Part shown: positions 2,168-21,169 of the stretch, piece after piece | Layout: every line of letters begins with the position of its first letter | How positions within the stretch are numbered: position 1 is the first letter of the stretch | Source: Bacteroidales bacterium | GTDB lineage: Bacteria; Bacteroidota; Bacteroidia; Bacteroidales; VadinHA17 | Length of the DNA: 64,000 nt | NCBI GenBank assembly: GCA_041740815.1 | Contig: JBGSLG010000192.1 | Span: 382 to 64,381, forward strand | Direction: 5' to 3' | The notes under the pieces: model-generated | Database searches by the model: none | What the model was told of the DNA's origin: nothing | What the model saw: the letters and a program-made list of their open reading frames with translations, nothing else | Position numbers and translations under genes: made by a program

Positions 2168-2318
2168 GAGTTTCGGTTTTAATTACACATTTTACGTTTA
2201 ACTGTGCATCTTTTTAAAAGTGGCCTAAAAGTATGAAAAAATATAATATATGGAACTGCATGCAGGTTAAATAGTGATTTAAAGGGTCGAGGGGAGTACT
2301 TTCCGGCATGTTTTCAGA

Positions 2319-2338
2319 GGGGATTTTTACTTTTCCCT
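2319..2338. repeat. Left copy of the exact 20-nt direct repeat GGGGATTTTTACTTTTCCCT
   Basis: Identical to 20129-20148. It covers the last 3 codons (REK), the TAA stop and 8 nt of 3' flank of the LacI gene. Confidence 0.95.
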
Positions 2339-3394
2339 CTTTACCGGTGTCTTTGGTGCTTCCCCGGCAACCATTCTTTTCGTCGATTCACGTACAATGA
2401 GATCGGTTTTAATCACCACGGTTTCGGAAGCTATGTTCACGTCGCGGTCTTCAATCTGGCGTATGAGCATACGTGCAGCTGTCTTTCCCATCTCGAATGC
2501 GCGGTCGTCTATGGTTGTCAGCGCCGGTTCGATGATTGTGGAGACGGGATAGTTGCTGAATCCTGCAACGGCAATGTCTTCAGGTATTCTGAGGTTACTC
2601 TTCTTTATTGACTGGATGGCCCCGATGGCTGTATAGTCGTTTGCACAGAAGATGCCGTCAGGTATTTCAGTCAGCTTCAGGAGCTTTCTGGTGCATCTGG
2701 AACCCTCTTCGTAGCTCAGGTCCGTAGCGCAGCACACCAGGTTGGGGTCGAAGGGGATGTTGTATCTCAGGAGGGCAGCCTTGTATCCTTCGAGCCTTGA
2801 TGCGAAGATTGATGTTGTCTGGCACCCTGCGATATGGGCAATTTTTTTGCAGCCTGTAATAATAAGGTGTTCCGTCACCCGGAAGGCAGCATCGAAGTCG
2901 TCTATGATCACCTTGCTTGCCTCGAGGTCATTGCTCACCCTGTCATAGAAGACCAGTGGGACCTTGAGACTGTTGAACCTGGTAAAGTGACTGCAGTTTT
3001 GTGTTTCCAGGGCGAGGCAGGCTATAATGCCGTCCACCATGTTCGTCTGCAGGATCCCGGTGATTGCTACCTCCCTTTCAAGGGAATCTTTCGACTGGTA
3101 TATGGTTACGTTATAGCCCATCTTATAGGCTATCTCTTCAACGCCGCTGATGACGTATGAATGGAAGGTGATATCGATGCGGGGCACGATCACCCCGATC
3201 ATATTGGTTTTTCTCCGGCGCAGATTTGATGCCACGGAGTTTGGAAGGTACCCGAGCTGCTTGGCAAGCTTCCATACCTCCCTGGTTGTCTCTTCACCTA
3301 TGCTTGGGTTGTTGTGCAGGGCCCTGGAGATGGTGGAGACGGAAAGGTTCATCCTTTTCGCGAGATCCTTGATTGTCACTCTTGTGCCGGGCAT
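2327..3394 (-). CDS. LacI-family transcriptional regulator
   Basis: N-terminal HTH VTIKDLAKRMNLSVSTISRALHN...VASNLRRRKTN, followed by a periplasmic-binding-protein-like sugar-binding core (GVIVP..., FCANDYTAIGAI). It is divergent from the susC at 3789. Confidence 0.9.
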   Translation of the reverse strand: MPGTRVTIKDLAKRMNLSVSTISRALHNNPSIGEETTREVWKLAKQLGYLPNSVASNLRRRKTNMIGVIVPRIDITFHSYVISGVEEIAYKMGYNVTIYQSKDSLEREVAITGILQTNMVDGIIACLALETQNCSHFTRFNSLKVPLVFYDRVSNDLEASKVIIDDFDAAFRVTEHLIITGCKKIAHIAGCQTTSIFASRLEGYKAALLRYNIPFDPNLVCCATDLSYEEGSRCTRKLLKLTEIPDGIFCANDYTAIGAIQSIKKSNLRIPEDIAVAGFSNYPVSTIIEPALTTIDDRAFEMGKTAARMLIRQIEDRDVNIASETVVIKTDLIVRESTKRMVAGEAPKTPVKREK

Positions 3395-3422
3395 GGTATA
3401 AAGTTACTGATATTTAAAAATG

Positions 3423-3432
3423 CAAACGTTTG
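3423..3432. promoter_or_regulatory. LacI-type operator candidate 1 (CAAACGTTTG)
   Basis: Perfect 10-bp palindrome with the central CG typical of LacI/GalR operators, 29 bp upstream of the LacI start codon. It shares the AAACGTTT core with the site at 3599-3610. Confidence 0.45.
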
Positions 3433-3598
3433 ATTAACATTGCGAATTTAAATAAAAATATGCACAGAAACACAAATAGTCATTAAATATCAATGGTAGA
3501 GCAGCATATGTATCATATTTTAGGACTCGTATAATGTCTGCCTGACCTGGTGGCGGAGGGAAAATGTTAAAATTTCATATTATATGGCAAAAATTTAC

Positions 3599-3610
3599 GC
3601 AAACGTTTGC
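3599..3610. promoter_or_regulatory. LacI-type operator candidate 2 (GCAAACGTTTGC)
   Basis: Perfect 12-bp palindrome in the LacI-susC intergenic region. It overlaps the TTTG that I read as the -33 element of the susC promoter. Confidence 0.55.
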
Positions 3611-3637
3611 TTTTTGAGTTTTAATATCATAATTTTG
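3606..3637 (+). promoter_or_regulatory. Bacteroidota-type promoter candidate for the susC operon (-33 TTTG / -7 TAATTTTG)
   Basis: TTTG at 3606-3609 and TAATTTTG (TAnnTTTG consensus) at 3630-3637 are separated by 20 nt. This would give a leader of about 145 nt before the ATG at 3789. Confidence 0.35.
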
Positions 3638-3788
3638 ATCTGTAAGGCTCAGTTCAATCAACTAAAGTACTGAAAATTAACTTGATAACTTTAAACCGAT
3701 CAACAAAACCGCTCCCGGGCACTTTGAGGATGCTTTCCGGGAGCAGGTCTGTGTCAGGATTTAAATTAAACCCTAAACAATCAAAATT

Positions 3789-6700
3789 ATGAAAAAAAAG
3801 CAAGTGAACGTGATCTTCTGTCCAGAAATGGGCTTGAAGAAACCGGTTCTGCTGTCAGGGTTAGTGATTATGCTCTCAGTTCTGCTGACATTCAGCGCTG
3901 CCGCATCTTCAACCCTCGCTTTGCAGCAGAAAAGGGTCACGGGGAAGGTCACCGATGCAACTACAGGTGAACTGCTCCCCGGAGTGACCATAGTTATTAA
4001 AGGTACCACTTCAGGCGTGGCTTCGGACCTCGACGGATCATATGTCGTCGATGTCCCGTCAAATACCACCGTGCTTCAGTTTACCTCCGTCGGATATGCG
4101 TCGCAGGAGATAGCCGTAGGCTCAAGGACCGTCATAGATGTGGCAATGCAAGCTGACGTTACTATGATAGAGGAACTGGTTGTCATAGGTTACGGCTTCA
4201 AGAAGAAGCGCGACCTCACCGGTTCAATCTCCTCTATCAGTGCTGCAAATATTGAAGACACTCCTGTCAAGGATGTACTCTCAGCATTGCAGGGACGCGC
4301 TCCGGGTGTCTTCGTGACATCCAACTCAGGTGCACCCGGCGACGGCATTACCGTCAGAGTCAGGGGATACTCGTCACTCAACTCCGGAAACGACCCGCTA
4401 TACGTCATCGACGGCGTACCTATTGAATCAAACAGCATGACTTCGCTCAACGGCTATGATATGCACGGCCTCAACCCGCTGTCAGACATCAACCCCGGTG
4501 ATATAGAATCAATTGAGGTCCTCAAAGATGCCGCCTCAACAGCCATCTACGGATCAAGAGCAGCCAACGGCGTGGTCCTCATAACCACCAAGAGAGGCAA
4601 GGAGGGCAAAGCCACCGTCAGCCTCAACTACTTCAGCGGCATAAGCCAGATAACCCGCAAACTGGGCGTCCTCAACGCAACTCAATGGCGCGAGGTGATC
4701 ATCGACTCTTATAAAAACCTCGACAGGTATAATAATGCCACTACACCTACCGAACCTCACTGGACTGCAATTGACTCACTGAACCCGATGAATAGCGGGG
4801 ATGTCGACTGGCAGAGCGTGATGTACCGCAAGGCATGGCAACACCAGGTGGAACTGGGCGTTCAGGGTGGCACAGAGGCTGCCAGATATGCATTCAGTAC
4901 ATCATACCTCGACCAGGACGGTATTTTCCTTGCATCAAACTACAAGAGAATCACATCAAGGTTAAACACCGACTTTAAGGTCTCTGACAAACTGACTATC
5001 GGGCAGAATATATCCTTTACCAACGGCAAAAACAACAGGATCAATGCCGGCGGCACCGGTAACCTCAGCCTCGTGCAATCGATCCTTGTCAGACCCCCGA
5101 TATATTCCCTGACCTATCCTGACGGATCACCCATCAATTATTTCAACGGTAAGAGAAACCCGGTTGGCATGGCCGAAGAGTGCACACACCTCAACGTGTC
5201 AAACAGGATTATAGGGAACCAGTATCTCGAGTATGATATTATGGAGGGGCTCATGTTCAGAACAAGCCTCGGCATAGATTACATAACAATGAAGGAGGAT
5301 GAGTTCTATCCAACCACAGTTGACTACCGCGCAGGTTACAACTGGGGTTCAGTAAGGGCCAGGACAAATATGACATGGGCCAATGAGAACTATCTTACCT
5401 ATACCACAACCCTCGCTGATGCACATGAGATATCTGCAATGGCCGGGTTCAGCATGCAGGACTGGAGGATGGAGACAACCGGTCTCGACGGACTCTATTT
5501 TGCCAGTGATAACATCAGAACACTCAACGGGGCAGGCACCATCTCAAACCAGGCTGTCAACCGTACCGATGAACATTCAATGGTCTCTTACTTCGGCCGA
5601 CTGTCATACAATTACAAGGGCAGGTACATCGCTGAAGCCAACCTCAGGGCTGACGGATCATCAAGGTTCGGTGCCGAGAACAGATTCGGGTATTTCCCGT
5701 CAGCCTCCGCAGCATGGAGGTTCTCCGACGAATCATTTGCCGACGGCCTGGGATTCCTGACTGACGGTAAACTGAGATTAAGCGTTGGACAGGGCGGTAA
5801 CGAGTCAATACCCAATTATGTATCAGGCGGTGAGTTCTCAATAGGAACTAACTACCTTACATACTCGGGAGCAGCTCCGACAGTCATGCCCAACCAGGCT
5901 CTCAAATGGGAGGTCACCACACAGTATAATCTCGGTATTGACCTGTCCATGTTTAATAACAGGGTAAGCTTCGTAGGTGATTTCTACATCAAGAATACAA
6001 CCGACCTGCTCTTTGCGGTTCCAATACCCGAAACAACAGGCTTCGGATACATCACCAGAAATATCGGTGACATATCAAACAAGGGGATGGAATTTGCTGT
6101 CAACACCCATAACTTCGACGGCGACTTCCAGTGGAGCACCAGCTTCAACATCGGGTTCAACAAAAACACTGTCGTCTCCCTTCCCGAGGATGTTCTTACA
6201 AACGGATACATCCAGAACGGGACCTATCACATTCTGAAAGAGGACGAATCAATAGGCACATTCTACGGATGGAAGTTCCTGGGTGTCTACTCAAGGGATG
6301 AAGACAACGTAAATGGTGTCAAGTTTGGCTCCGAGACAGGTAAGGTGTTCAAGGGCGGTGACATTATCTGGGATGATGTTAATGATGATAATATCATCAA
6401 TGACCTCGACAAGCAGATCATAGGCAATGCCCAGCCGATATTCGCCGGAGGTTTCAATAACGACTTCTCATACAAGAACTTCGGCCTCAATATCTTTCTG
6501 CAGTTCTCATACGGTAATGACATCTACAGCCACCTCAACAGCATGAGGAACTGGGTGTTTGCCTATAACAACGTCTCCACCGATGCTCTCAACAGATGGA
6601 GAGAGCAGGGCGATGTTACCGACTATCCTGCACCGGTGCGCAATGACCCGATGAGAAATGAATATCTCAGGGTTTCAGACAGGTGGATTGAGGATGGCTC

Positions 6701-6935
6701 ATACATGAGACTCAAGAATGTCACATTCTCCTATACGCTCCCCACAGCTATTACCGGCAAGGTGGGTATAAGCAGGCTCCGGGCATACGTCACCGGTCAG
6801 AACCTTATGACATTCACCCATTACACCGGTTATGACCCGGAGGTAAACTCCTACAGCGGATTACAGGTCGGTGTTGATGAGGGCGCATATCCTCAGAGCC
6901 GTACGGTAATATTTGGTGTAAACATGGAATTTTAA
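3789..6935 (+). CDS. susC: SusC/RagA-family TonB-dependent outer-membrane transporter
   Basis: 1048 aa. It has a carboxypeptidase-regulatory-like N-domain (VTGKVTDATTGELLPGVTIVIKGTTSGVASDLDGSY), a plug (DPLYVIDGVP, IESIEVLKDAASTAIYGSRAANGVVLITTKRGK) and a C-terminal barrel ending in F. A susD follows directly. Confidence 0.95.
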   Translation: MKKKQVNVIFCPEMGLKKPVLLSGLVIMLSVLLTFSAAASSTLALQQKRVTGKVTDATTGELLPGVTIVIKGTTSGVASDLDGSYVVDVPSNTTVLQFTSVGYASQEIAVGSRTVIDVAMQADVTMIEELVVIGYGFKKKRDLTGSISSISAANIEDTPVKDVLSALQGRAPGVFVTSNSGAPGDGITVRVRGYSSLNSGNDPLYVIDGVPIESNSMTSLNGYDMHGLNPLSDINPGDIESIEVLKDAASTAIYGSRAANGVVLITTKRGKEGKATVSLNYFSGISQITRKLGVLNATQWREVIIDSYKNLDRYNNATTPTEPHWTAIDSLNPMNSGDVDWQSVMYRKAWQHQVELGVQGGTEAARYAFSTSYLDQDGIFLASNYKRITSRLNTDFKVSDKLTIGQNISFTNGKNNRINAGGTGNLSLVQSILVRPPIYSLTYPDGSPINYFNGKRNPVGMAEECTHLNVSNRIIGNQYLEYDIMEGLMFRTSLGIDYITMKEDEFYPTTVDYRAGYNWGSVRARTNMTWANENYLTYTTTLADAHEISAMAGFSMQDWRMETTGLDGLYFASDNIRTLNGAGTISNQAVNRTDEHSMVSYFGRLSYNYKGRYIAEANLRADGSSRFGAENRFGYFPSASAAWRFSDESFADGLGFLTDGKLRLSVGQGGNESIPNYVSGGEFSIGTNYLTYSGAAPTVMPNQALKWEVTTQYNLGIDLSMFNNRVSFVGDFYIKNTTDLLFAVPIPETTGFGYITRNIGDISNKGMEFAVNTHNFDGDFQWSTSFNIGFNKNTVVSLPEDVLTNGYIQNGTYHILKEDESIGTFYGWKFLGVYSRDEDNVNGVKFGSETGKVFKGGDIIWDDVNDDNIINDLDKQIIGNAQPIFAGGFNNDFSYKNFGLNIFLQFSYGNDIYSHLNSMRNWVFAYNNVSTDALNRWREQGDVTDYPAPVRNDPMRNEYLRVSDRWIEDGSYMRLKNVTFSYTLPTAITGKVGISRLRAYVTGQNLMTFTHYTGYDPEVNSYSGLQVGVDEGAYPQSRTVIFGVNMEF

Positions 6936-6947
6936 ATACAGACGGAT

Positions 6948-8330
6948 ATGAAATTAAAATATATCAGGACAGTTTTAGTGGCTATCGTACTGATGCAGGT
7001 GACTGCCTGTACCGATATCCTTGACAAGGATCCCGTCAGCAGCTTTTCAGCTTCAGGGTTTTACAAGACCACCGCTGATGCACAGGCTGGAATCTACGGA
7101 ATCTATGATGCTGCACAGTCAGTCTTCAGACTTAATTTCTGCTACTGGGGCGAAGGAAGGGCTGACAATGTCCAGACCGCACAGTCGGGCGAATCTCTCG
7201 TTCTCAGTTCGAACAACCTCACCAACACAGCCTCATCGGCAGACTGGACCGCCCTCTATACAATGATCAGCAGGGCCAACTATGCAATTGCATTTATTCC
7301 AAATGTGTTTGACGCAAATGATGTCGCGGGTAAACAATTGCTGGGTCAGGCTCATGCCCTCAGGGCATTGGCTTATTTCTATCTTGTAAGGGTATGGGGC
7401 GATGTGCCTTTCATAACTGAGCCTTACACATCGGGTGATCAGGACATCTTTGTCGGAAAGACCGGTAAGGAGATTGTTCTTGACCAGGTGGAATCAGATC
7501 TGAAATATGCTGCCGCAAACTGCATTGAAAAATTCAATAGCAACAATGACCGGATAATGTTCACCAGGGGATCTGCTAACGGACTGCTCACACAGGTATA
7601 TATGTGGAGGCACAAGTACACGGAGACAGTAACAACCTCCAGCCTGGTCATGTCAAACACCCTCTACTCACTGGTTCCGATAGCCGACTGGGGCAAGATG
7701 TTCTCAAACAGCTATTCCAAGGAGAGTATCTTCGAAGTAGGTTACAATGACACAGAAACTAACGGTCTCAGAACACTCTATGCTGTAGGTTCATATGCCA
7801 TCTATACCCCATCCGTCAAATGGAAGGAATCAATTGAAGAAGGTGACCTCAGGGAAGCCTTTGTTTACGATATGGTCCCTGCCGATCCCAAGGCTATATG
7901 GAAATACCTGGGACAGGGAGTGAGTGATGAAATTGCCACCCCTGCTAAGCAGAATATTGTTCTTATCAGACTTGCTGACATCATGCTTCTCAGGGCAGAG
8001 GCGCTCAACAAGATCGGAGGAGAGGCAAACAAGACAGAGGCACTTACCCTTCTCAATACCATCAGGACAAGAGCCGGGCTTACATCCTTCGTCACCGAGG
8101 CTGATGCCATAGCAATGTACGGAGACCTGGAATCAGCAATTCTTCATGAGAGGTCGGTTGAGCTCTGCTTCGAAGGTCACCGCTGGTTCGACCTGGTCCG
8201 CACAGGCAAGGCTATCTCTACCATGGGCCCGATCAATGGCCTGAGCGCCGAGGGTAACCTTGTATGGCCGGTACATCAGAATTCTCTCAACAAGAACCCG
8301 AACATGACGCAGAATTCATTCTATAATTAA
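6948..8330 (+). CDS. susD: SusD/RagB-family nutrient-binding lipoprotein
   Basis: Lipobox LMQVTAC followed by TDILDKDP. TPR-like helical motifs are present (RALAYFYLVRVWGDVPF, LLRAEALN, ERSVELCFEGHRWFDLVR). It lies 12 bp after susC. Confidence 0.9.
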   Translation: MKLKYIRTVLVAIVLMQVTACTDILDKDPVSSFSASGFYKTTADAQAGIYGIYDAAQSVFRLNFCYWGEGRADNVQTAQSGESLVLSSNNLTNTASSADWTALYTMISRANYAIAFIPNVFDANDVAGKQLLGQAHALRALAYFYLVRVWGDVPFITEPYTSGDQDIFVGKTGKEIVLDQVESDLKYAAANCIEKFNSNNDRIMFTRGSANGLLTQVYMWRHKYTETVTTSSLVMSNTLYSLVPIADWGKMFSNSYSKESIFEVGYNDTETNGLRTLYAVGSYAIYTPSVKWKESIEEGDLREAFVYDMVPADPKAIWKYLGQGVSDEIATPAKQNIVLIRLADIMLLRAEALNKIGGEANKTEALTLLNTIRTRAGLTSFVTEADAIAMYGDLESAILHERSVELCFEGHRWFDLVRTGKAISTMGPINGLSAEGNLVWPVHQNSLNKNPNMTQNSFYN

Positions 8331-8361
8331 TTGCTGCTGAGAATCATCAAAGACACGAAAA

Positions 8362-8949
8362 ATGAAAAAGAATATTATAACTTTTCGAAAGTTGCACCTG
8401 GTAAAGATGCTTCTTCTCCCCCTTACACTTGCAGTGATGTTCGCATCATGCGAGATACAGGAGGACTATGAATACGTATACGGTAATCCCGGAGGCAAGG
8501 TCAATATGACAGCCTGGGAATTCATTCAGACAACCGATTCCCTCTCTCTGATGGAAGAGGCAATCTCCGCTACCGGGCTTCAGAGCCTCTATTCCGGAAC
8601 CACTGTCAGAACCTTCATAGCTCCAAGAAACAGCGCTTTCAGGGCATATATGAAGACCAACAGCTACGCGAATATCAGCGCCATCCCTGTTGCAACTCTT
8701 GAGACGGTACTCAAATATCACGTTGTGAATGCAAAGGTGATATTCACCGATCCGGAACTGCTCCTGAGCAACAACCCTATCTCATATCCTACAGAGAGCG
8801 GAGCAGTGATGTTCCTCTCTCACAATACCAGTTATCAGGGGTTGATCAACCAGGGGACCAAAAAAAGCTGGACTATTATTACATCTAACATTGAGCCGAC
8901 GAACGGGGTGATACATGTGACGGCAGATATCGTCTACCTGTCACTCTGA
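8362..8949 (+). CDS. Fasciclin (FAS1) domain lipoprotein, likely accessory surface glycan-binding protein
   Basis: Lipobox MFASC. FAS1 motifs are TFIAPRNSAF, LKYHVVNAKV and NGVIHVTADIV. It occupies the position just after susD. Confidence 0.75.
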   Translation: MKKNIITFRKLHLVKMLLLPLTLAVMFASCEIQEDYEYVYGNPGGKVNMTAWEFIQTTDSLSLMEEAISATGLQSLYSGTTVRTFIAPRNSAFRAYMKTNSYANISAIPVATLETVLKYHVVNAKVIFTDPELLLSNNPISYPTESGAVMFLSHNTSYQGLINQGTKKSWTIITSNIEPTNGVIHVTADIVYLSL

Positions 8950-9087
8950 TGCCGGTCAGAAGATAGAAGGTTAGTTTTTAGGTTGAAGATCAGATGGGTA
9001 TTCTGCAGTGGTGATTGGAGTACTGAAAGGCATAGCCCATCTGATTCTTTAAAATCCTTCTTGACCTGTAGTGTTTTTTTACTCTTG

Positions 9088-9107
9088 GTCCGGACACCTG
9101 TCCGGAC
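9088..9107. promoter_or_regulatory. Two copies of the 8-bp palindrome GTCCGGAC spaced 12 bp centre to centre, upstream of nagB
   Basis: GTCCGGAC at 9088-9095 and 9100-9107, about 20 bp upstream of the nagB ATG (9128) and just after a T7 run. Confidence 0.25.
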
Positions 9108-9127
9108 AGAACTAATGATTAATCACA

Positions 9128-9883
9128 ATGAGGATTAACAGATATAATCACCTTAATGTCAACGTTTTTACGACGAGGATGGAGATGGGACGTGCTGCCG
9201 GAAGGGACGTAGAGGAGCGGATAGAAGCGTTGCTAAAGGTCAAGGATGAGATAAGGATGGTCTTTGCAGCCGCTCCTTCACAGAATGAAATGCTTGATTA
9301 CCTGGCAGGCTCAGAGGTTATTGACTGGAGCAGGGTGACAGCCTTTCATATGGACGAATATTTAGGCCTCAACGGAAGGGCTGACCAGCTCTTTTCTCTC
9401 TATCTCTCGCGAAGACTATTCAGTAAGGTCAGGATGAAGAAAGTCCACCTGCTTAACGGAACTGCTGATTCCGAAGAGGAGGCACGGAGATATTCATCGC
9501 TGCTGACGGAAGCGCCAATTGACATCATATGCCTGGGGATAGGAGAGAACGGCCACATTGCCTTCAATGATCCACCGGTGGCTGATTTCGGTGACACCAG
9601 TATTGTCAAGAAGGTCAGCCTTGACAGGGCGTGTCGGATACAGCAAGTCAATGAAGGATGCTTCGCCACACTTGATGAGGTACCCAAAAAGGCACTGACA
9701 CTCACTATTCCTGTCATCTTTAATGCATCGCACCTCTTCTGTGTTGTTCCCGGAGCAAGCAAGAGAGAGGCCGTGTACAATACCCTGAACGGTCCGGTTA
9801 CTACTGCCTGCCCCGCATCGGTGCTGCAAAAACACCCCGACTGCAGATTTTATTTCGACAGGGATTCTTTCGGAGAAGTGTAA
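9128..9883 (+). CDS. nagB: Glucosamine-6-phosphate deaminase/isomerase family protein
   Basis: 251 aa with the family motif CLGIGENGHIAFNDPP and the upstream FHMDEY. No signal peptide. Confidence 0.8.
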   Translation: MRINRYNHLNVNVFTTRMEMGRAAGRDVEERIEALLKVKDEIRMVFAAAPSQNEMLDYLAGSEVIDWSRVTAFHMDEYLGLNGRADQLFSLYLSRRLFSKVRMKKVHLLNGTADSEEEARRYSSLLTEAPIDIICLGIGENGHIAFNDPPVADFGDTSIVKKVSLDRACRIQQVNEGCFATLDEVPKKALTLTIPVIFNASHLFCVVPGASKREAVYNTLNGPVTTACPASVLQKHPDCRFYFDRDSFGEV

Positions 9884-9901
9884 AATTATTATGTTTAAAG
9901 A

Positions 9902-11809: not shown

Positions 11810-11814
11810 TCGTT

Positions 11815-13431
11815 ATGATTAATGGATTTAAGTTTAAATCAGTAAAGCAAATGGGCAGAAGAGTGTTCTATATCATTCCGGTGGTGCTGATTATTCTGGC
11901 AGGTTGCCGGAATGCCGATACAGCCGCACAGGATGTTCAGGAACCCGTACAGCTAACCGGGAATCAGTTCGGAGTAAGAGGATTCCATGTTGATCTGCGT
12001 ATCCAGGTCATGACCATGGAGGCTCTCATGGCCCTGGCAGATGAACTGGCCGGATTTGGTATAAATACTCTCGTGATGGAGTGGGAGGCATCATACCCCT
12101 ACCTTAACAATGCAACCATCTCCAACGATCTTGCCTATTCCCGGGAGGAGATCGCTTCATTCATTGACTATTGTGAGGAGCGGGGAATCGATGTCATTCC
12201 CCTTCAGCAGTGCTTCGGGCATGTAGAATATATTTTGAGGCATGACCGGTATAGCGCCCTGAAGGAGGATCGCAAGGATATCTCGCAGCTGTGCCCGCTT
12301 GAGAAAGAGGCTGACAGCCTTCTGTTTGCAGACCTCTTTGCCGATATGGCCTCAATGCATCAGTCTGATTACATTCATATCGGCGGTGATGAAACATATC
12401 TCCTGGGCCATTGTCCCGACTGCTCCCTCAAGGCTGCTACCGAAGGCAAATCCAAGCTCTTCGTCGACTACATGAAGATGATGTGCGACATAATCATAGG
12501 CCTTGGAAAGAAGCCGGTGATGTGGGCTGATATACTTCTCAAGTATCCGGAAGCTGCCGCGGAGATGCCTGATGAGACCATCTTCATAGACTGGAATTAC
12601 GGCTGGAAGACAAATTACTTTGGAGATATAACTGCCCTACAGGAGCAGGGATTTGAATTCTGGGGTTCGCCGGCTATCAGAAGCCATCCGGACAACGCTT
12701 ACGTCACATGCTGGGAGAAGCACTTTATTAACCAGCGCGAATTCATTCCGTACGCACGTGAGGCAGGATATACAGGCGTGGTGATGACATCATGGTCCAC
12801 ATCGGGAGTGTATGGCTTTCTGTGGGACGTCAACTTCGAGGTGATGGAGATGGAGCAGATACGCAACACCTATCCGCTTTCAGGCTTCAGAATACTGCTG
12901 GCATCTTATGCACAGGCTCTTAACCAGCTGGAACCGATTGATCCTCATAAGTTTGTGCTTCAGTATGCCATTGATCGCTTCGGCCTGACAGAAGCTGAGG
13001 GAGAGCTTTTATGGGAGACACTCACAATCTCACCTGAACTCATTGTGAACGGCAAACCTGCCACCTCTCCTTCAATCAGCGCCATGCGGGATACCGTTGC
13101 TGCAGCTGTCGCGAAGATGAATACCCTTAAGTCGGTGAAAAACACAAAAGAATTTGAGCATCTCAGACTTATGCTTGACATCAGGAATCACTACCTGGCG
13201 TTCAAGGAGACTGAAGCCCGCTTCAATGCACCCGGTTTTACAATTGATGGAAGGGAGAGCATTGTTGCAGACCTGGAAAAGCTTATCAAAGAATCAAGGA
13301 CCCTTGACAGGAGATTTGCCAGGCTTAACAAGGGCTATCTGTATGATACGGAGATTGCCGAACAGAATCTGATAAGGAACCGGAAGATGATGCTGCTTCA
13401 TGAGAGGCTCACCGGAAACAGGACACTTTAA
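11815..13431 (+). CDS. GH20-family-like hexosaminidase
   Basis: TIM-barrel motifs RGFHVDL, QCFGHVEYIL and YIHIGGDETYLLGHCPDC, with the GH20 catalytic D-E pair intact. Lipobox LAGC; an alternative start is the Met at 11851. Confidence 0.7.
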   Translation: MINGFKFKSVKQMGRRVFYIIPVVLIILAGCRNADTAAQDVQEPVQLTGNQFGVRGFHVDLRIQVMTMEALMALADELAGFGINTLVMEWEASYPYLNNATISNDLAYSREEIASFIDYCEERGIDVIPLQQCFGHVEYILRHDRYSALKEDRKDISQLCPLEKEADSLLFADLFADMASMHQSDYIHIGGDETYLLGHCPDCSLKAATEGKSKLFVDYMKMMCDIIIGLGKKPVMWADILLKYPEAAAEMPDETIFIDWNYGWKTNYFGDITALQEQGFEFWGSPAIRSHPDNAYVTCWEKHFINQREFIPYAREAGYTGVVMTSWSTSGVYGFLWDVNFEVMEMEQIRNTYPLSGFRILLASYAQALNQLEPIDPHKFVLQYAIDRFGLTEAEGELLWETLTISPELIVNGKPATSPSISAMRDTVAAAVAKMNTLKSVKNTKEFEHLRLMLDIRNHYLAFKETEARFNAPGFTIDGRESIVADLEKLIKESRTLDRRFARLNKGYLYDTEIAEQNLIRNRKMMLLHERLTGNRTL

Positions 13432-13474
13432 CATGCGAGGCTCACCGGAATCAGAACACAGTTATATGCGAGGC
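13400..13474 (+). repeat. 33-bp tandem repeat, about 2.3 copies, spanning the end of the GH20-like gene and the start of the esterase gene
   Basis: Unit 1 (13400-13432) is ATGAGAGGCTCACCGGAAACAGGACACTTTAAC. Unit 2 (13433-13465) is ATGCGAGGCTCACCGGAATCAGAACACAGTTAT. A partial third unit, ATGCGAGGC, starts at 13466. Confidence 0.85.
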
Positions 13475-14314
13475 AGGCTGACACGGTTTTTGTTGCTGGC
13501 AGCGCTCTTCTCATTGTCTGCTGCGATGGTTCAGGATGAACGAACAAGGTTTTTTCCCCGGAGCCAGGAGTACGTTGATGTCATGCCCCCCAGGGAAAAG
13601 GTCTGGCTCTTTGTGCTTGCCGGACAGTCGAATATGGCTGGCCGGGGCGTTGTTGAGCCGGGCGACACGGTGCCTCATCCGCGCATCTTTACGGTTACTC
13701 CGGATAACCGCTGGGTGGTGGCAAAGGAGCCCCTGCAGCTCTATCAGCCGGCACTCACCGGCCTGGGACCGGGACTGGCGTTTGCCAGGGCTTTGATTGA
13801 GGAACTTGACGAAGACATTTATATCGGACTGATACCCTGTGCCGTTGGCGGCAGTTCAGTCGGCAACTGGCTCAGTGATTCGCTCTTCAATGGTGTAAAA
13901 CTCAAGAGCAACTTCACTGATAAGGTGCTCCGGGCCAAAGAGTACGGAACGGTGAAAGGCATCATCTGGCACCAGGGTGAAGCCGATGCCACTGCCGCTA
14001 AACTACCCCGCTACAAGGCTGACATGACTCTCCTTTTTGATTACTTCAGGGGGGTGACAGGGAATGAGAATCTCCCGATAATAGCCGGTGAGCTTGGCAT
14101 ATTCCCCGGAGTTGAGAAGAACAGGCAGGAATACATGATTCTGAATGACATCCTCCTGGAAATTACCCGGGAGGATCCTGACATGGCCCTGGTTAGATCA
14201 TTCGGCCTGAAGGCGAAGGAGGACAACGTGCATTTTGATTCCCGGTCGCAACGGATCATGGGCAGGAGGTATGCATCTTCATGGCTGTCACTCACCCGTA
14301 ACATGAACAAATAA
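13466..14314 (+). CDS. SGNH/DUF303 sialate-O-acetylesterase-like carbohydrate esterase
   Basis: Catalytic motifs LAGQSNMAGRG (nucleophile Ser), WHQGEAD and DNVHFD (D-x-x-H). I prefer the third in-frame ATG (13466, MRGRLTRFLLLAALFSLSAA signal) over the track start at 13400, which overlaps the upstream gene. Confidence 0.75.
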   Translation: MRGRLTRFLLLAALFSLSAAMVQDERTRFFPRSQEYVDVMPPREKVWLFVLAGQSNMAGRGVVEPGDTVPHPRIFTVTPDNRWVVAKEPLQLYQPALTGLGPGLAFARALIEELDEDIYIGLIPCAVGGSSVGNWLSDSLFNGVKLKSNFTDKVLRAKEYGTVKGIIWHQGEADATAAKLPRYKADMTLLFDYFRGVTGNENLPIIAGELGIFPGVEKNRQEYMILNDILLEITREDPDMALVRSFGLKAKEDNVHFDSRSQRIMGRRYASSWLSLTRNMNK

Positions 14315-14324
14315 AACCACAGAC

Positions 14325-15791
14325 ATGCAGCTGATAGACTGGATAGTTCTCGCACTCTATTTTTTGTTGCTCATCTCGGTAGGCTTCTGGGCCTACAGAA
14401 GGGTTAACAATTCGGCCGATTTCTTCACCGCCGGAGGCAAGCTGCCGTGGTGGCTCTCGGGGGTATCCCACCATGTGTCAGGCTACAGCGGTGCGGTATT
14501 TGTTGCCTATGCAGGGATAGCCTACACCAACGGACTGACCATTTATATATGGTGGGCATGTGCCGTTGCTGCTGCCACCTTCCTGGGTGCGCACCTCGTA
14601 GCTCCTCGCTGGGCCCGGTTACGGATTGCTACCGGCATACAGTCGCCCACCGAATACCTCCTTACCCGGTACAATCTAAATACCCAACAGCTCATTGCCT
14701 GGTCGGGCGTCGTTATAAAAATATTTGACGTGGGGGCCAAATGGGCTGCCATAGCCATTCTTCTGAATATTTTCGCCGGAACCTCATTCCTGACCGGCAT
14801 CCTTCTCGCCGGATCCGTCTCTCTAATATACAGTACACTGGGAGGCTTGTGGGCTGATGTGGTGAACGACTTTGCACAGTTCATTGTGCAGCTTATAGCC
14901 GGGATAACAATGTTCGTGATCGTACTGATAAACCTGGGCGACGGCCCGGCAGGATTCCTGACGCTGTGGGACAGGTTGCCGGATTCGCATTCGGCTGCCT
15001 TCAGTGATCCCTATACCTGGCAGTTTCTGATTGCTATGGTTATCATTGACTTTTTCAGCTACAGCGGTGGCACCTGGCACCTGGCAACACGCTTCATCGC
15101 CTCCTCTTCGGGCCAGGTGGCCAGGAAGGCAGCCACACTCTCATCAATCCTTTACCTGTTGTGGCCCATAGTGCTTTTCTTCCCAATGTTCGCCGCTCCA
15201 CTGTTCCTCCCTGACCTGGAAGACCCTACGCGTGCCTACGGGATGCTCGCCATCAGGTTCCTGCCGGCAGGCCTGGTAGGCCTCGTGATGGCCTCGCTCT
15301 TTACAAACACCCTCTCAATGACCTCTTCGGATGCAAATACAATCTCAGCGGTAATCACACGTGATATCCTGCCCCGTTTCATCAAAGGCTTCGCTGATTA
15401 CCCCAGGAAGAAAATATTGCTCTTCGCCAGGATATCAACATTTTCCTTCACGGTACTGACAATACTTATCGCTATCAATGCCGAGAGTTTCGGAGGTGTT
15501 TTCGGACTCATTGTTTCGTGGTTCGCGGCTCTTCTGGGTCCCATTTCAATACCGATGATCCTGGGCCTGTTGCCGGCCTTCCGCAGGTGCGACAGCCGGA
15601 TAGCCATTATATCCATCCTCTCAGGAATTGGCGCATTCATTATTGTTAAACTTATACCGGGAGCTTCACTTGCCCTGGAGGTTGGGGTTCCGCTCTTTAC
15701 ATCATTAATATTGTATATTGCCGCAGGGTTACTGATCAGGAGAGAGGTACCGGAGCGGGTTGATATTCTGATGAGTTCACTTAAGAAATAG
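14325..15791 (+). CDS. Sodium:solute symporter (SSS) family transporter
   Basis: 488 aa and polytopic. The N-terminal pattern is YFLLLISVGFWAYRRVNNSADFFTAGGKLPWW and the protein is hydrophobic throughout. Confidence 0.85.
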   Translation: MQLIDWIVLALYFLLLISVGFWAYRRVNNSADFFTAGGKLPWWLSGVSHHVSGYSGAVFVAYAGIAYTNGLTIYIWWACAVAAATFLGAHLVAPRWARLRIATGIQSPTEYLLTRYNLNTQQLIAWSGVVIKIFDVGAKWAAIAILLNIFAGTSFLTGILLAGSVSLIYSTLGGLWADVVNDFAQFIVQLIAGITMFVIVLINLGDGPAGFLTLWDRLPDSHSAAFSDPYTWQFLIAMVIIDFFSYSGGTWHLATRFIASSSGQVARKAATLSSILYLLWPIVLFFPMFAAPLFLPDLEDPTRAYGMLAIRFLPAGLVGLVMASLFTNTLSMTSSDANTISAVITRDILPRFIKGFADYPRKKILLFARISTFSFTVLTILIAINAESFGGVFGLIVSWFAALLGPISIPMILGLLPAFRRCDSRIAIISILSGIGAFIIVKLIPGASLALEVGVPLFTSLILYIAAGLLIRREVPERVDILMSSLKK

Positions 15792-15800
15792 AAGTAACAG

Positions 15801-17021
15801 GTGCGAATGGCAACAGGTGATACAGTGATTTACGGACGCAGTTACCAGAGCGGTAAATCGTTACGGGTGGAACTTGCGGGCGGTATTATAAAGAGCATTG
15901 AGGAGATCGCCGAAAAAAGCATTGAGGAGGCAGGCGAAAAGAGCATTGAAGAGACCGCTGACAAAAAAGCTCCGGACTACCTGATTGCTCCCGGGCTGAC
16001 TGACCTTCAGGTCAACGGCTATGCAGGATTTGATCTCAATACTGACCCGCTTATTCCGGAAACAGTAAGGGATATCTCTGTCAGGCTATGGAGCGAGGGG
16101 GTAACTACCTTTTTCCCGACCGTCATCACCAACAGCTGTGATAATATCCTCAGTTATGTGCGTGCTATAGCCGAAGCCTGTCAGTTGTTTGCGGAGGCCG
16201 CTGCGGCTGTGGGAGGCATTCATCTTGAGGGACCCTTCATCTCACCTGAGGCTGGCGCCCGGGGAGCACATCCGGCTCAGCATGTGCGGCCCCCAGACTG
16301 GGATCTCTTCTGCCGGTGGCAGGAGGCATGCGGAGGCATGATACGCATCATCACCCTCTCACCCGAATGGCCCGGTGCTGGTGATTTTATCAGGCGGGCA
16401 TCAGAGAGCGGCGTGACAGTTGCAATAGGCCATACAGCAGCCACACCTGAACAGATAAGGGAAGCCGTGGCATCCGGGGCTACACTCTCCACTCACCTGG
16501 GCAACGGGTCTCACCAGATGCTGCCCAGACACAGAAACTACATATGGGAACAGCTCGCCGCAGACGAACTGTATGCAACCATGATATCCGACGGCTTCCA
16601 TCTCCCTGACGCGCTGATGAAGGTCTTCATGAGGACGAAACCGGGCCGGATGATCCTGGTGAGCGATGCCACCGGACTTACCGGGATGACTCCGGGAGAC
16701 TACAACACTCACATAGGAGGGGAGGTTACCCTCACCCCGGCCGGTAAGCTTCATATGAGAGGCAACCCGGATATGCTGGCCGGATCAGGCAAGTCGCTGA
16801 TACACTGCGTGGAGACACTGGCCTCTAAAGGATTGGCAACACTGGCCGAGGCACTTGATATGGCCGCCCAAATCCCTTACAGGATGGCAGGCCTGCCGGG
16901 TGAAGCTGTTCTGACTAACGGCGGGTTGGCTGACCTGATACTGATCAGGGAGGGGAGTGACGGATTAAAGGTTGTACGGACAATAAAGTCCGGGGTAACA
17001 GTTTTCAGCACGGATTTGTAA
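15801..17021 (+). CDS. nagA: N-acetylglucosamine-6-phosphate deacetylase
   Basis: Amidohydrolase motifs DLQVNGYAGFD, HLEGPF, AIGHTAA, THLGNG and SDGFH. The track start is the GTG at 15801; an ATG at 15807 is equally possible. Confidence 0.85.
   Translation: MRMATGDTVIYGRSYQSGKSLRVELAGGIIKSIEEIAEKSIEEAGEKSIEETADKKAPDYLIAPGLTDLQVNGYAGFDLNTDPLIPETVRDISVRLWSEGVTTFFPTVITNSCDNILSYVRAIAEACQLFAEAAAAVGGIHLEGPFISPEAGARGAHPAQHVRPPDWDLFCRWQEACGGMIRIITLSPEWPGAGDFIRRASESGVTVAIGHTAATPEQIREAVASGATLSTHLGNGSHQMLPRHRNYIWEQLAADELYATMISDGFHLPDALMKVFMRTKPGRMILVSDATGLTGMTPGDYNTHIGGEVTLTPAGKLHMRGNPDMLAGSGKSLIHCVETLASKGLATLAEALDMAAQIPYRMAGLPGEAVLTNGGLADLILIREGSDGLKVVRTIKSGVTVFSTDL
15891..15962 (+). repeat. In-frame 24-bp x3 tandem repeat inside nagA (KSIEEIAE/KSIEEAGE/KSIEETAD)
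   Basis: AAGAGCATTGAGGAGATCGCCGAA, AAAAGCATTGAGGAGGCAGGCGAA and AAGAGCATTGAAGAGACCGCTGAC, read directly from the sequence. Confidence 0.9.
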
Positions 17022-17046
17022 CCTGATCTTCAGAATCACAATAAAT

Positions 17047-17778
17047 ATGAATCAGATATCTCTTTTGTTATTATTGCTTGTCATTGCCGGATGCTCGGGG
17101 AAAAAGCCTGAATTTGTCATTCCTGAAGGAGCACGGGTCATCAGTTTCTCCGGTTATGAGTGGGTGGTATCCACCACCGGAGAGCAGAAGGCAGGCCCTG
17201 GACCAAATTATTTCTCTGACTCGGAGGAGAATGTCTGGGTTGATGACCGGGGGAGGCTTCACCTCAAGATCACATACCGCAACGGCAGATGGAACTGCTC
17301 AAGGGTTGAGCTTGCCAGGCATACAGGGTACGGCAAATATGTGTTTTATGTCTCGTCGAGGCCTGACAGCCTTGACCGGCAGGTGGTATGGGGACTGTAT
17401 ACCTACAAAAACGACACGGAGGAGATAGATATCGAATTCTCAAGATGGGGCTTCGACAACAACCAGGAGGCCCAGTATGCCATTCAGCCCTCGCACAAAC
17501 CAGGGAACAAGGCACGCTTCAGGATGAACCTGGAGGGAAGCTATTCGACTCATATCTTCGACTGGACAAAAAAATGGATTGATTTTGCCAGTTACCATGG
17601 CCACAGGCTTAACCCGGTCAATGAGACGGAGATAATCGCCCGCTGGCGCTATTACGGTGATGACAATCCCCCTGACAGCGATGAAAAACTGAAGATGAAC
17701 CTGTGGCTGTTCCGCGGCACGCCTCCATTAAACGGCAAGGAGACTGAAGTTGTGGTTGATCGTTTTGAAATCCTTTGA
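17047..17778 (+). CDS. GH16-like (concanavalin-fold) lipoprotein
   Basis: Lipobox VIAGCSG. It carries an E-x-D-x-E catalytic-type motif, EEIDIEFSRWG, in a beta-rich protein of about 240 aa. Confidence 0.5.
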   Translation: MNQISLLLLLLVIAGCSGKKPEFVIPEGARVISFSGYEWVVSTTGEQKAGPGPNYFSDSEENVWVDDRGRLHLKITYRNGRWNCSRVELARHTGYGKYVFYVSSRPDSLDRQVVWGLYTYKNDTEEIDIEFSRWGFDNNQEAQYAIQPSHKPGNKARFRMNLEGSYSTHIFDWTKKWIDFASYHGHRLNPVNETEIIARWRYYGDDNPPDSDEKLKMNLWLFRGTPPLNGKETEVVVDRFEIL

Positions 17779-17781
17779 ATC

Positions 17782-20109
17782 ATGAAAAAGAGACTGTTAT
17801 TCCCGGCTCTGGCAGCCATGTTTGTCCTCACTCTGTCCGGATGCACCACCGGCAATGGCGATCATGCCTATGAACCGTTTTCGGTAATCCCAATGCCTGT
17901 ATCTATGAAGGCAGGGGAGGGGGAGTTTCTGCTCAGCGCAGAGACGGGAATATTCATGGATCCCACATTTGTGGACACAGGTACCTTAGTGGAGATGTTC
18001 AACGGGTTCCTTGGTAAGCATTATGAAAAGATACAGACCAGTCAACTGCAGGAGATAAGAGCTGACAATATTATACAGGTAATACATGACAGCCTGCTTG
18101 CCTCTCCCGAGGCCTATAATCTTACGGTGGCAGGTGACGCTATCACCATTGTAGCCGGTGATGACGCCGGACTCTTTTATGCTTTCCAGACACTTATGCA
18201 GCTGGTGTGGCCCTCGCAGAAAGAGACCGGAGGAGAGATAGCAATACCCGGTGTGATTATCACTGACAGCCCACAGTATACCTGGCGCGGAATGCATCTC
18301 GACGTAGCCAGGCATTTTTTCCCGAAGGAATTCATCTTTAAGATGCTTGACGCTATGGCGATGCATAAGCTCAATACATTTCACTGGCATCTGACAGATG
18401 ACCAGGGATGGAGGATTGAGATAAAAAAGTATCCGGAGCTGACCTCCGTCGGGGCATGGAGGGATGAGACTCTCATCGGTCACGGCAGCGAGACACCATG
18501 GGTCTATGACGGCACAAGGTACGGCGGGTTTTATACTCAGGAGGATGTCCGCGAGGTGGTGGAGTACGCCCGCAGGCTTCATATCAACGTACTCCCCGAG
18601 ATAGAGATGCCGGGTCATGCCGTGGCAGCCCTGCAGGCCTATCCTGAGCTGTCATGCGGCGGGGATCCGGTGCCGCCCTTCAACAGGTGGGGAGTATCTG
18701 AAGATGTCTTTTGCGCAGGCCGGGAGGAGACTTTTGAACTCCTGTCAGGGGTGCTCGAAGAGGTGGCTGAGCTATTCCCGTATGAGTACATACATATCGG
18801 CGGCGATGAATGTCCAAAGGTGAGATGGGAAGCATGCCCTCTTTGTCAGAAGAGGATTGCTGACAACAACCTTAAGGATGAGCATAAGTTGCAGAGTTAC
18901 TTCGTGAAACGTATGGAATCTTTCCTGGCTACCAAAGGAAAAAAGATCATCGGCTGGGATGAGATACTTGAAGGAGGCATAGCCGAGAACGCAGCCGTGA
19001 TGTCGTGGCGCGGGCATGAGGGAGGCATCCAGGCAGCCAACATGGGTCATGATGTTGTAATGACACCGCACTCATTCGTATATCTCGACTACTACCAGTC
19101 GAAATATAATGAGCCCCTGGCAATCGGCGGTATGCTTGATATGAAGAAGGTCTATTCAATCGATATCATGCCCACTGAGATTGCAGAGGACAAACGGCAT
19201 CACATAATTGGTGCCCAGTCAAACGTCTGGACGGAGTACATGGGTGACGGGAGGCATGTTGAGTATATGGTCTTCCCGCGGCTTGCTGCCCTGGCAGAGG
19301 CACTCTGGACTCCGCGTGAGAAACTTGACTATGATGGTTTTACGCAGCGCATGGCAGCCCATTATGCAAGGTATGACGCAATGAACATAAACTATAGGGT
19401 GCCATACGCGTCAGGATATGAAGCCATAAACCTTGTTACGGAAGGAAGTATGTCAGTGGAGCTCTCAAACGGCATCCCGGGCTCGGAAATATATTACACC
19501 ACAGACGGCAGTGAACCGGATGCCACGTCAGATCTCTACAGCGGGCCGCTGACTCTTGAACCGCAGACGGACCTGCTTCTCAAATCTGTCACGGTTATGC
19601 CGGGAGGCAGGAAGAGTGCAGTTATGACCGGCATTTTCAGGAAATCGGAGCTGAAGGAAGCTCTCAGGACTGATACTGCAAACCTTCAGCAGGGTTTGCG
19701 CTTCAGCCTGTACAGGGGAGAATTTAATTCATCGGAGGAGATGGAGGGCATGGCCGATACGACGGGCACAGTTCCCGTGGTCAGGATCCCGGCAGGATCC
19801 CCTTCAGAAAACTTCGGACTGGTGCTGGAGGGATACATCATGATCCCCGCTGACGGAGTATACTCATTTTACACAGGCTCCGACGACGGCGTCAGGGTCT
19901 TTATTGACGATGAGCTGACAGTTGACGGCGATGAGCTTCACCACGGCATTACAAACGAAGGCCGGGCTGCGCTCAGGGCAGGATTGCACCGGATAACCGT
20001 CCGCTATTTCCAACGGCTTTACCGGCAGAGCCTGAACATGAGCTGGGAAGGACCCGGTGTTACAAGGCAGGCAGTCCCCGAATCATCACTTTTACATCAA
20101 CCGGAATAG
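17782..20109 (+). CDS. GH20 beta-N-acetylhexosaminidase with C-terminal PA14 domain
   Basis: Lipobox LTLSGC. GH20 motifs are WRGMHLDVARHF, NTFHWHLTDDQGWR, PEIEMPGH and YIHIGGDECPK. The C-terminus from about 19744 is PA14-like (LEGYIMIPADGVYSFYTGSDDGVRVFIDD). Confidence 0.9.
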   Translation: MKKRLLFPALAAMFVLTLSGCTTGNGDHAYEPFSVIPMPVSMKAGEGEFLLSAETGIFMDPTFVDTGTLVEMFNGFLGKHYEKIQTSQLQEIRADNIIQVIHDSLLASPEAYNLTVAGDAITIVAGDDAGLFYAFQTLMQLVWPSQKETGGEIAIPGVIITDSPQYTWRGMHLDVARHFFPKEFIFKMLDAMAMHKLNTFHWHLTDDQGWRIEIKKYPELTSVGAWRDETLIGHGSETPWVYDGTRYGGFYTQEDVREVVEYARRLHINVLPEIEMPGHAVAALQAYPELSCGGDPVPPFNRWGVSEDVFCAGREETFELLSGVLEEVAELFPYEYIHIGGDECPKVRWEACPLCQKRIADNNLKDEHKLQSYFVKRMESFLATKGKKIIGWDEILEGGIAENAAVMSWRGHEGGIQAANMGHDVVMTPHSFVYLDYYQSKYNEPLAIGGMLDMKKVYSIDIMPTEIAEDKRHHIIGAQSNVWTEYMGDGRHVEYMVFPRLAALAEALWTPREKLDYDGFTQRMAAHYARYDAMNINYRVPYASGYEAINLVTEGSMSVELSNGIPGSEIYYTTDGSEPDATSDLYSGPLTLEPQTDLLLKSVTVMPGGRKSAVMTGIFRKSELKEALRTDTANLQQGLRFSLYRGEFNSSEEMEGMADTTGTVPVVRIPAGSPSENFGLVLEGYIMIPADGVYSFYTGSDDGVRVFIDDELTVDGDELHHGITNEGRAALRAGLHRITVRYFQRLYRQSLNMSWEGPGVTRQAVPESSLLHQPE

Positions 20110-20128
20110 CTGACTGCCAGGGATTGTT

Positions 20129-20148
20129 GGGGATTTTTACTTTTCCCT
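20129..20148. repeat. Right copy of the exact 20-nt direct repeat GGGGATTTTTACTTTTCCCT
   Basis: Identical to 2319-2338. It covers, in the same register, the last 3 codons (REK), the TAA stop and 8 nt of 3' flank of the lipoprotein gene 20137-21039. Confidence 0.95.
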
Positions 20149-21039: not shown

Positions 21040-21103
21040 TTTCAGTGATTTTGGTTCAGAACCTGTTACTGAAACCAAAGTTATGCTAAAAAGTCCGACA
21101 TCA

Positions 21104-21142: not shown

Positions 21143-21169
21143 TGATCTCAAAAACTAACTCTGTAAACT

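Follow-up and report, generated by a model that had tools for sequence, protein, structure and literature searches.

A 20-bp direct repeat delimits a naturally polymorphic, putative glycan-utilisation locus in a Bacteroidales lineage

The locus and its terminal repeat

The stretch of DNA analysed here (the window) comprises 64,000 nucleotides (nt) of contig JBGSLG010000192.1 in the Bacteroidales bacterium assembly GCA_041740815.1 and contains a gene for a LacI-family regulator together with eleven plus-strand genes that are bracketed, as one segment, by an exact 20-bp direct repeat. With its adjacent SusC- and SusD-like genes, glycan-active enzymes and regulator, this segment has the makeup of a Sus-like polysaccharide-utilisation locus, and its gene content predicts a LacI-regulated system for a glycan rich in N-acetylglucosamine (GlcNAc). 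Its left neighbour, in genomes with and without the segment, is a gene for a FadL/TodX-like outer-membrane protein (OMP), while its right neighbour is a minus-strand lipoprotein gene that converges with the last gene of the locus, a large GH20 gene, leaving 27 nt between the two stop codons. We describe an occupied form of this site, with the complete locus between two repeat copies, and an empty form with a single copy; the copies very probably mark the end points of a natural polymorphism in which the occupied form is ancestral and the empty form was derived from it by deletion between them.

The repeat, GGGGATTTTTACTTTTCCCT on the plus strand, occurs exactly twice in the window, both times on that strand, at 2319-2338 and 20129-20148, with unrelated sequence on either side, as an earlier note on this DNA had pointed out. 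Identity reaches 22 of 23 nt (2319-2341 versus 20129-20151) and then stops. Read on the minus strand, both copies consist of AGG GAA AAG TAA and AAATCCCC, that is, the R-E-K codons and stop at the end of either gene (LacI or lipoprotein), together with the first 8 nt of its 3' flank; this register, and the content of the interval as the regulator plus exactly eleven genes, likewise hold as the note described them. The window contains no further match with up to three mismatches (dinucleotide shuffles gave a mean of 0.01), and the whole assembly (3.07 Mb in 203 contigs, 98% complete) holds just these two copies when two mismatches are allowed, so that the 20-mer is not a frequent genomic motif, a possibility that the note had wanted checked. 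An exact scan of genome and JGI metagenome contig collections returned zero matches and hence neither additional strains nor a circle junction. We also considered the 20-mer as a terminator or other common element and rejected this, given that neither copy has a terminator-like site and that the genome holds no third copy; a weak 6-bp stem (AGAGGG/CCCTCT) is found at the LacI copy only.

The note had estimated that about 0.002 chance 20-mer repeats are expected per window, and this figure is right for uniform composition but not for this genome, in which isolated non-periodic 20- to 23-mers are about five times commoner than that expectation. About 0.01 chance 20-mers per 64-kb window should thus be reckoned with, which is unremarkable in a large scan. 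The unusual feature is the stop-anchored register and not the 20-mer as such: of 5.5 million pairs of open reading frame (ORF) ends in this genome, 46 are identical over the final 12 nt, and the apparently unrelated pairs among them (defined by at most 16 nt shared upstream of the stop) have 0 to 3 nt in common downstream, compared to 8 for the LacI/lipoprotein pair. The genome also harbours dispersed arrays of degenerate 7- to 8-nt units (CTTCAGT, GCCTACT, AAGAATT, AAAGGTT, ACCGCAGG and others; e.g., C173:11832-11951, C130:202-230 and C119:200-2400), which are the source of most isolated 20- to 24-mer repeats; contig C119 additionally carries a long repeat with a period of 258 bp.

The features at and around the segment are listed in Table 1. 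A second Sus-like locus, on the minus strand, ends with the lipoprotein gene; between this gene and the BACON gene upstream lies a strong terminator-like hairpin on the minus strand (21111-21143; 13 pairs, then a T run), suggesting that the lipoprotein gene is probably transcribed on its own. Within the segment, a 33-bp tandem duplication (82% identical) at 13399-13464 covers the boundary between the GH20-like and SASA esterase genes, taking in the end of the former and the start of the latter.

Table 1. Features of the window at and around the repeat-bounded segment
Feature	Position	Strand	Details
OMP gene (FadL/TodX-like)	539..2167	-	Pfam, synteny; left neighbour in occupied and empty forms
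LacI-OMP intergenic region (IGa)	2168..2326	-	159 nt; conserved stretch at about 2160-2277 upstream of the OMP gene
Left repeat copy	2319..2338	-	AGGGAAAAGTAA followed by AAATCCCC; last three LacI codons + TAA, 8 nt of LacI-OMP intergenic region
LacI-family regulator	2327..3394	-	355 aa; Pfam LacI + Peripla_BP_1/3/4; tail ...PVKREK* inside left repeat
Segment absent from empty-site contigs	2339..20148		17,810 bp; one repeat copy plus everything between
SusC-like TonB-dependent transporter	3789-6935	+	1048 aa; S2 orthologue Pfam Plug/TonB_dep_Rec
SusD-like lipoprotein	6948-8330	+	460 aa; S2 orthologue Pfam SusD_RagB
Fasciclin-domain protein	8362-8949	+	Pfam
NagB-like	9128-9883	+	Pfam
Heparinase II/III-like	9902-11809	+	Pfam
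GH20 hexosaminidase	11815-13431	+	Pfam
SASA esterase	13400-14314	+	Pfam
Na+/solute symporter	14325-15791	+	Pfam
NagA-like amidohydrolase	15801-17021	+	Pfam
243-aa lipoprotein	17047-17778	+	Pfam search without match
GH20 with PA14 domain (large GH20)	17782-20109	+	Pfam
Right repeat copy	20129..20148	-	Last three lipoprotein codons + TAA, 8 of the 27 nt between the lipoprotein and convergent GH20 stops
DUF6340-like lipoprotein	20137-21039/21078	-	300 aa from MKQ start; weak Pfam DUF6340, homologues PF19867; tail ...FMNREK* inside right repeat
BACON protein gene of second Sus-like locus	21170-22414	-	
SusD-like gene of second Sus-like locus	22431-24008	-	

Empty and occupied forms in nature

According to the earlier note, a single 20-mer copy should close the lipoprotein gene in a strain without the locus and lead straight into the sequence now found at 2318 and below, and exactly this arrangement is present in ten public assemblies. 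A protein search with the lipoprotein yielded a protein cluster (P0001) carried by 18 contigs, of which we examined 10, each from a different public run (Logan assemblies ERR7336218 ... ERR7338888). The lipoprotein allele of this cluster is 99% identical to that of the present genome and one residue off that of a second occupied strain, S2, described below. All ten contigs read ...ATGAACAGGGAAAAGTAA, AAATCCCC, TCTGAAAACATGCC... at the junction and, further out, ...ATGAACAGGGAAAAGTAA AAATCCCC TCTGAAAACATGCCGG...CACTATTTAA..., and wherever they reach far enough, a gene on the same strand begins 159 nt past the lipoprotein stop. Their BLAST alignments to the window stop at 20129 and resume at 2338, with 20 nt shared. 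These contigs are the exact empty site, 17,810 bp shorter than the occupied form and with the junction inside the 20-mer; the lipoprotein reading frame is intact, and IGa lies directly 3' of its stop. The repeat thus delimits a unit whose presence varies in nature, in keeping with the earlier note. Logan contigs are assembled with k = 31, which exceeds the length of the repeat, so that the empty junction is not an artefact of the assembly graph. Three LacI contigs (L096-L098) and a lipoprotein contig (L088) terminate exactly 30 nt into the shared sequence formed by the 20-mer and IGa, as happens where a k = 31 graph branches, which suggests that occupied and empty forms coexist in runs ERR7337719, ERR7337721, ERR7337942 and ERR7337720.

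The second occupied strain, S2, is represented by a 500-kb contig from an independent sample (ENA ERZ25039603, contig_19704) that encodes the exact LacI protein and that we covered by walking along it via protein look-ups. It has the same locus with the same left copy and the same right copy (...AACAGGGAAAAGTAA AAATCCCC AACAATCCCTGG...), showing that the repeat is real and older than the split of these two strains. S2 and the present genome differ by about 0.5 to 1% both inside and outside the locus with no identity step at either repeat, and the segment has therefore diverged together with its flanks. Part of the segment, window 4800-9200 (3' half of susC, susD and the fasciclin gene), is 6 to 12% diverged from S2, and smaller diverged patches lie at 15000-15800, 16800-17000 and 17905-18104; all of these look like imported alleles. 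S2 also has an extra acyltransferase-3 gene (382 aa; L102:10001-11149) between the genes for the 243-aa lipoprotein and the large GH20, that is, between the equivalents of window positions 17778 and 17782, and its large GH20 gene is split into two ORF calls (578 + 235 aa). Exact-protein look-ups returned no match for the large GH20 and a single 1.1-kb contig for the 243-aa protein.

We joined the flanks of S2 by script and set them against the empty-site contigs, which revealed 0 to 2 mismatches over 1.2 to 2.2 kb (4 in one contig). Left of the junction, across the BACON and lipoprotein genes, most contigs show 2 mismatches in 1.4 to 2.2 kb, and right of it there are none in the first 100 to 222 nt; two longer empty contigs have 12 additional mismatches at a neighbouring allele boundary. 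The present genome, by comparison, differs from S2 and the empty contigs by about 1% on the left side (23/2292) and also by about 1% on the right side (5/222 versus empty contig L081 and 10/980 versus S2). The empty contigs thus group with S2 to the exclusion of the present genome, itself occupied, so that the empty form is most simply a recent precise deletion and not the ancestral site; by parsimony, the direction of change would be from occupied to empty. Three surface-protein genes at or near the site, those for the OMP (539-2167), the lipoprotein (20137-21039) and the SusD-like protein (22431-24008), have very divergent alleles between close strains (L081-L090), and in species comparisons the lipoprotein is 53 to 72% identical while its neighbours are 80 to 90% identical.

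A species-level survey of 65 genomes of the genus places this polymorphism in a wider context. The order OMP, LacI, locus, lipoprotein is common (G041, G057, G076, G006, G012, G020, G001, G067, G071, G070, G074, G055 and others), and none of these occupied relatives carries GGGGATTTTTACTTTTCCCT; the ends of their loci differ and are not repeated. In G041 and G057, LacI is 96% identical to that of the present genome and its gene ends, on the minus strand, in AGAGAAAAGTAA followed by TAATATCT and TATTATTG, respectively, indicating that LacI in this subclade has R-E-K-TAA as its native end and that the locus is old at the site without a flanking repeat. The lipoprotein gene of G057 has a different ending, and G041 has lost the lipoprotein gene altogether; in the latter (L066, C8:1-200, compared with window 20098-21060), the GH20 end is fused to the start-codon region of the lipoprotein gene at a short shared ...CTGTTTCAT..., with the terminator between the BACON and lipoprotein genes directly after the join. 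Other members of the genus have empty sites with remnants of the locus. A 3' piece of GH20 lies between the lipoprotein stop and the OMP-upstream region in G065 and G059, about 100 nt of unassigned sequence and then the last ~35 LacI codons are found in G007, and in a further group of contigs (P0002 type; lipoprotein 82% identical) the lipoprotein stop is followed by the spacer between lipoprotein and GH20 genes (IGb), the region of the GH20 stop and the final six codons of LacI. The differing end points of these remnant-bearing sites indicate that the locus was lost at least four times independently and that the occupied state is ancestral in the genus.

These observations suggest an occupied ancestor with the OMP gene, lacI, the eleven genes and the convergent lipoprotein gene, in which a perfect 20-bp repeat lay across the LacI and lipoprotein stops. 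Recombination between the copies would then have removed exactly 17,810 bp, comprising one repeat copy, the regulator and all eleven genes, and would have left a product in which the lipoprotein frame is intact and its stop is joined to the former LacI-OMP intergenic region. Replication slippage, single-strand annealing or short-homology recombination could each achieve this without a dedicated recombinase. In line with deletion at a short direct repeat, the putative parent has a perfect repeat with unrelated flanks and the product has one copy with the flanks joined. None of the 12 segment genes was assigned by Pfam to a recombinase, all having other assignments or none. Matches to the tyrosine recombinase family PF00589 are confined to three genes on contigs C52, C171 and C83 and thus absent from this contig; the serine recombinase family PF00239 has zero matches in the assembly; and the transposase family DDE_Tnp_1 (PF01609), the one transposase family searched, matches on other contigs only. 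Terminal inverted repeats are likewise lacking at the inner ends of the segment. Reading the mechanism from its products, we infer that no dedicated recombinase is involved, and the loss of the locus at different short homologies in different lineages argues for illegitimate events that depend on homology length instead of site-specific recombination.

Several points weigh against this deletion model. Two repeats of 20 bp that lie 17.8 kb apart are expected to recombine at a very low rate, so that selection or a helper activity may be involved. The direction of change is a parsimony argument, and the proposed deletion is seen through its products at contig level. Moreover, the 2.3-kb block that is identical to S2 in empty contigs adjoins SusD-like alleles of only 73 to 80% identity, and most empty contigs carry a different OMP allele (~50 to 65% identical where aligned); the flanks hence recombine heavily, and their identity between empty and occupied forms could reflect gene flow and not descent. 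In G005, G019 and G022, finally, the IGa motif begins 8, 20 and 13 nt past the lipoprotein stop, respectively, without a clear remnant of the locus between them, and these sites could be old empty alleles.

Origin of the repeat and alternative explanations

How the two ends of the locus came to share 20 bp is a separate matter, and two explanations were weighed. We think that at least nt 6-20 of the repeat were probably copied in a templated event, with the LacI end as the source and the end of the lipoprotein gene as the recipient. The nearest lipoprotein allele, that of the P0002-type contigs, ends in AGGGAGAAGTAA followed by GTATAAAC, and the lipoprotein end of the present lineage differs from it at 6 positions within nt 6-20, all 6 of them toward the state of the LacI end, including a synonymous change of GAG to GAA. 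The LacI end of this lineage reads AGGGAAAAGTAA and AAATCCCC, and the decayed LacI remnant of the P0002-type contigs reads GGGAAAAGCAAATATTCCCC; since it shares this state, the state looks native to the LacI side. Before such an event, the two ends would already have been alike through the coding similarity of R-E-K/Q-stop. The copying itself may have been a short conversion or template switch between the ends. Alternatively, an earlier deletion via AGGGA microhomology would have created exactly this junction, and homology-facilitated illegitimate recombination would later have restored the locus at a point 8 nt past the stop. In this process (de Vries & Wackernagel 2002; Prudhomme et al. 2002; discussed in PMC5361080), one homologous joint and one microhomology joint could bring back a locus beside a gene end while duplicating a few bases of the old junction, which makes it a candidate here for the origin of the repeat only.

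It is distinctly less probable, though a serious contender, that the identity arose by chance on similar Lys/Arg/Glu-rich tails and later served as a deletion substrate without any templated event. Such tails are indeed at hand, as the LacI genes of G041 and G057 already end in AGAGAAAAGTAA (11/12) and the lipoprotein genes of relatives in AGGGAGAAGTAA or AGGGAGCAGTAA; the nucleotides beside both stops evolve very fast (~50% differences next to flanks of 95% identity), isolated 20-mers are, as noted above, about five times commoner than the uniform expectation, and the scan behind the note took in very many windows. Set against this are the 8 nt shared downstream of the stops, compared to at most 3 nt for unrelated ORF ends sharing 12 nt in this genome, the consistent direction of the six changes (by a rough estimate, about 1e-5 by chance) and the fact that both ends demonstrably recombine with each other. 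Two features weaken the case for a templated origin in turn: substitutions between lineages have saturated the spacer beside the lipoprotein stop, and the assumed ancestral lipoprotein end comes from a single relative allele of 82% identity. On the LacI side, 2278-2336 is ~50% diverged from G041 and G057 although the flanks are 95% identical, and we tried this cluster of mutations as a signal of conversion and dropped it, given that these three genomes alone cannot separate conversion from drift. An import of both copies from an empty-site donor was dropped as well because S2 has the same structure with no identity step at the repeats, and neither duplication-collapse nor simple double-crossover schemes yield, on paper, the duplicated 8 nt. 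We consider it unlikely, if conceivable, that the locus is a recombinase-less mobile cassette that leaves via the repeat and can re-enter empty sites, in its own strain or another, through short-homology recombination or the homology-facilitated illegitimate kind, with the repeat as a footprint of loss and regain; if so, a whole regulon would flicker on and off in the population without a dedicated enzyme.

The earlier note had read the repeat as the trace of a cassette insertion, an att-like duplication or a recombination scar. The last part points the right way, in that the 20-mer would be a recombination substrate and the empty junction its scar, and the first two fare poorly. If the empty site were ancestral in this lineage and the segment had been inserted at the lipoprotein stop with duplication of 20 bp, whether a circle integrated through the 20-mer in the Campbell manner or staggered or illegitimate joints were made, one would indeed see the one-copy empty site, two preserved reading frames, a trait of elements that insert at gene 3' ends, and sites like those of the deeper relatives G005, G019 and G022 in which the lipoprotein stop directly precedes the OMP-upstream region without a clear remnant; the scenario of deletion and re-insertion outlined above even includes an insertion step. 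Yet both junctions recur in two occupied strains that differ by about 1%, and one of these strains groups with the empty contigs; divergence within the segment equals the baseline of the flanks, and remnant-bearing empty sites elsewhere make loss the common direction. Furthermore, the closest species-level relatives, G041 and G057, and many others have the locus at the same position without the 20-mer, which is one of the findings that the note had named as speaking against a repeat generated by insertion. We therefore regard insertion as quite improbable. The 20-mers as att-like sites of a non-autonomous element, similar to the cis-mobilizable elements (CIMEs) discussed below and served by a recombinase encoded elsewhere, seem less probable still. 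Perfect direct repeats at both ends, a single core at the empty site of related genomes, the overlap with a gene 3' end that is shared by many att sites, and three tyrosine recombinase genes elsewhere in the genome would fit this idea. It is at odds with the lack of a recombinase in the segment or on the contig and of any serine recombinase in the assembly, with the absence of the 20-mer from the rest of the genome and from the genome and JGI metagenome collections scanned, with the 12 coding nt being native to LacI in relatives and with the loss of the locus at different end points in other lineages. An integrase-borne element should also have its repeat in every genome that carries the locus at this site, whereas G041, G057, G076, G012, G067, G006 and others have the locus and no repeat. 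Nor does the repeat resemble a transposon target-site duplication, since these usually measure 2 to 14 bp and not 20 bp, inverted repeats are missing and PF01609 matches are confined to other contigs. An assembly error at a shared k-mer as the source of one repeat copy or of the empty junction might be feared with an assembly of 203 contigs and a repeat whose 20 nt equal k-1 for k = 21, but this is barely credible: the independent S2 contig from another sample carries both copies in the same context, so that the repeat is not an assembly artefact, and the empty junction appears in 10 separate runs in contigs built with a k-mer (31) longer than the repeat.

Comparison with known systems and significance

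As a probable repeat-mediated deletion, the change from occupied to empty site is of a well-known kind, and it is an unusually clean natural example with both forms present in nature. Its closest described analogue is the E. coli genomic island for microcin H47, which encodes no recombinase itself, still excises when recA or recombinase genes are mutated, using identities of 13, 11, 20 and 17 bp within its flanking repeats, and has natural empty sites (Azpiroz & Lavina 2017, PMC5426353). Both are multi-gene chromosomal segments with direct repeats, no encoded site-specific recombinase and natural empty sites with one copy. The H47 island is, however, flanked by att regions that are long (148 and 144 bp) and imperfect and contain four blocks of identity, whereas the locus described here has one isolated identity of 20 to 22 bp between unrelated flanks. 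Excision and its independence of RecA were shown experimentally for the H47 island, while the present locus is known from its natural products only, and its cargo, a putative LacI-regulated Sus-like glycan locus in an uncultured Bacteroidales lineage, is unlike that of the island.

Classical deletions at short homologies share with our case a perfect short direct repeat at both ends, the retention of one copy and the lack of need for a dedicated enzyme. Spontaneous large deletions of this type were reportedly described by Albertini and colleagues in 1982 with the lacI system of E. coli, and RecA-independent deletion between short repeats is said to have been treated by Bzymek and Lovett in 2001. 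These laboratory deletions mostly cover tens to a few thousand bp, compared to 17.8 kb here, and they differ from the present one in that the latter is fixed in natural populations and cleanly removes a whole regulon while preserving the neighbouring frame. Integrative elements are known to target gene 3' ends, and their recombinase-less derivatives are the CIMEs of Streptococcus thermophilus. The present segment resembles them in that its repeats overlap a gene 3' end, the gene is intact either way and the empty site has one copy. It is unlike them in having no integrase in the segment or on the contig, in the absence of the repeat from locus-bearing relatives and in a repeat whose coding part is native to both genes.

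A complete regulon, comprising a regulator, a transporter pair and nine further genes that mostly encode enzymes, would thus be removable from a Bacteroidota-type genome through a repeat of just 20 bp, with deletion end points that spare the neighbouring genes and with both forms circulating in natural communities. Given that other members of the genus lost the locus on at least four independent occasions, the site is a hotspot of gene-content change, and it illustrates at the level of sequence how very close strains come to differ in their glycan-utilisation repertoires. The forms can be told apart by their junctions, with the LacI gene, the 20-mer and IGa in a row plus the lipoprotein gene, the 20-mer and IGb as markers of the occupied form, and the lipoprotein gene, the 20-mer and IGa as the marker of the empty form. 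Such junction markers could be used to count the two forms in metagenomes and to relate them to the availability of the substrate.

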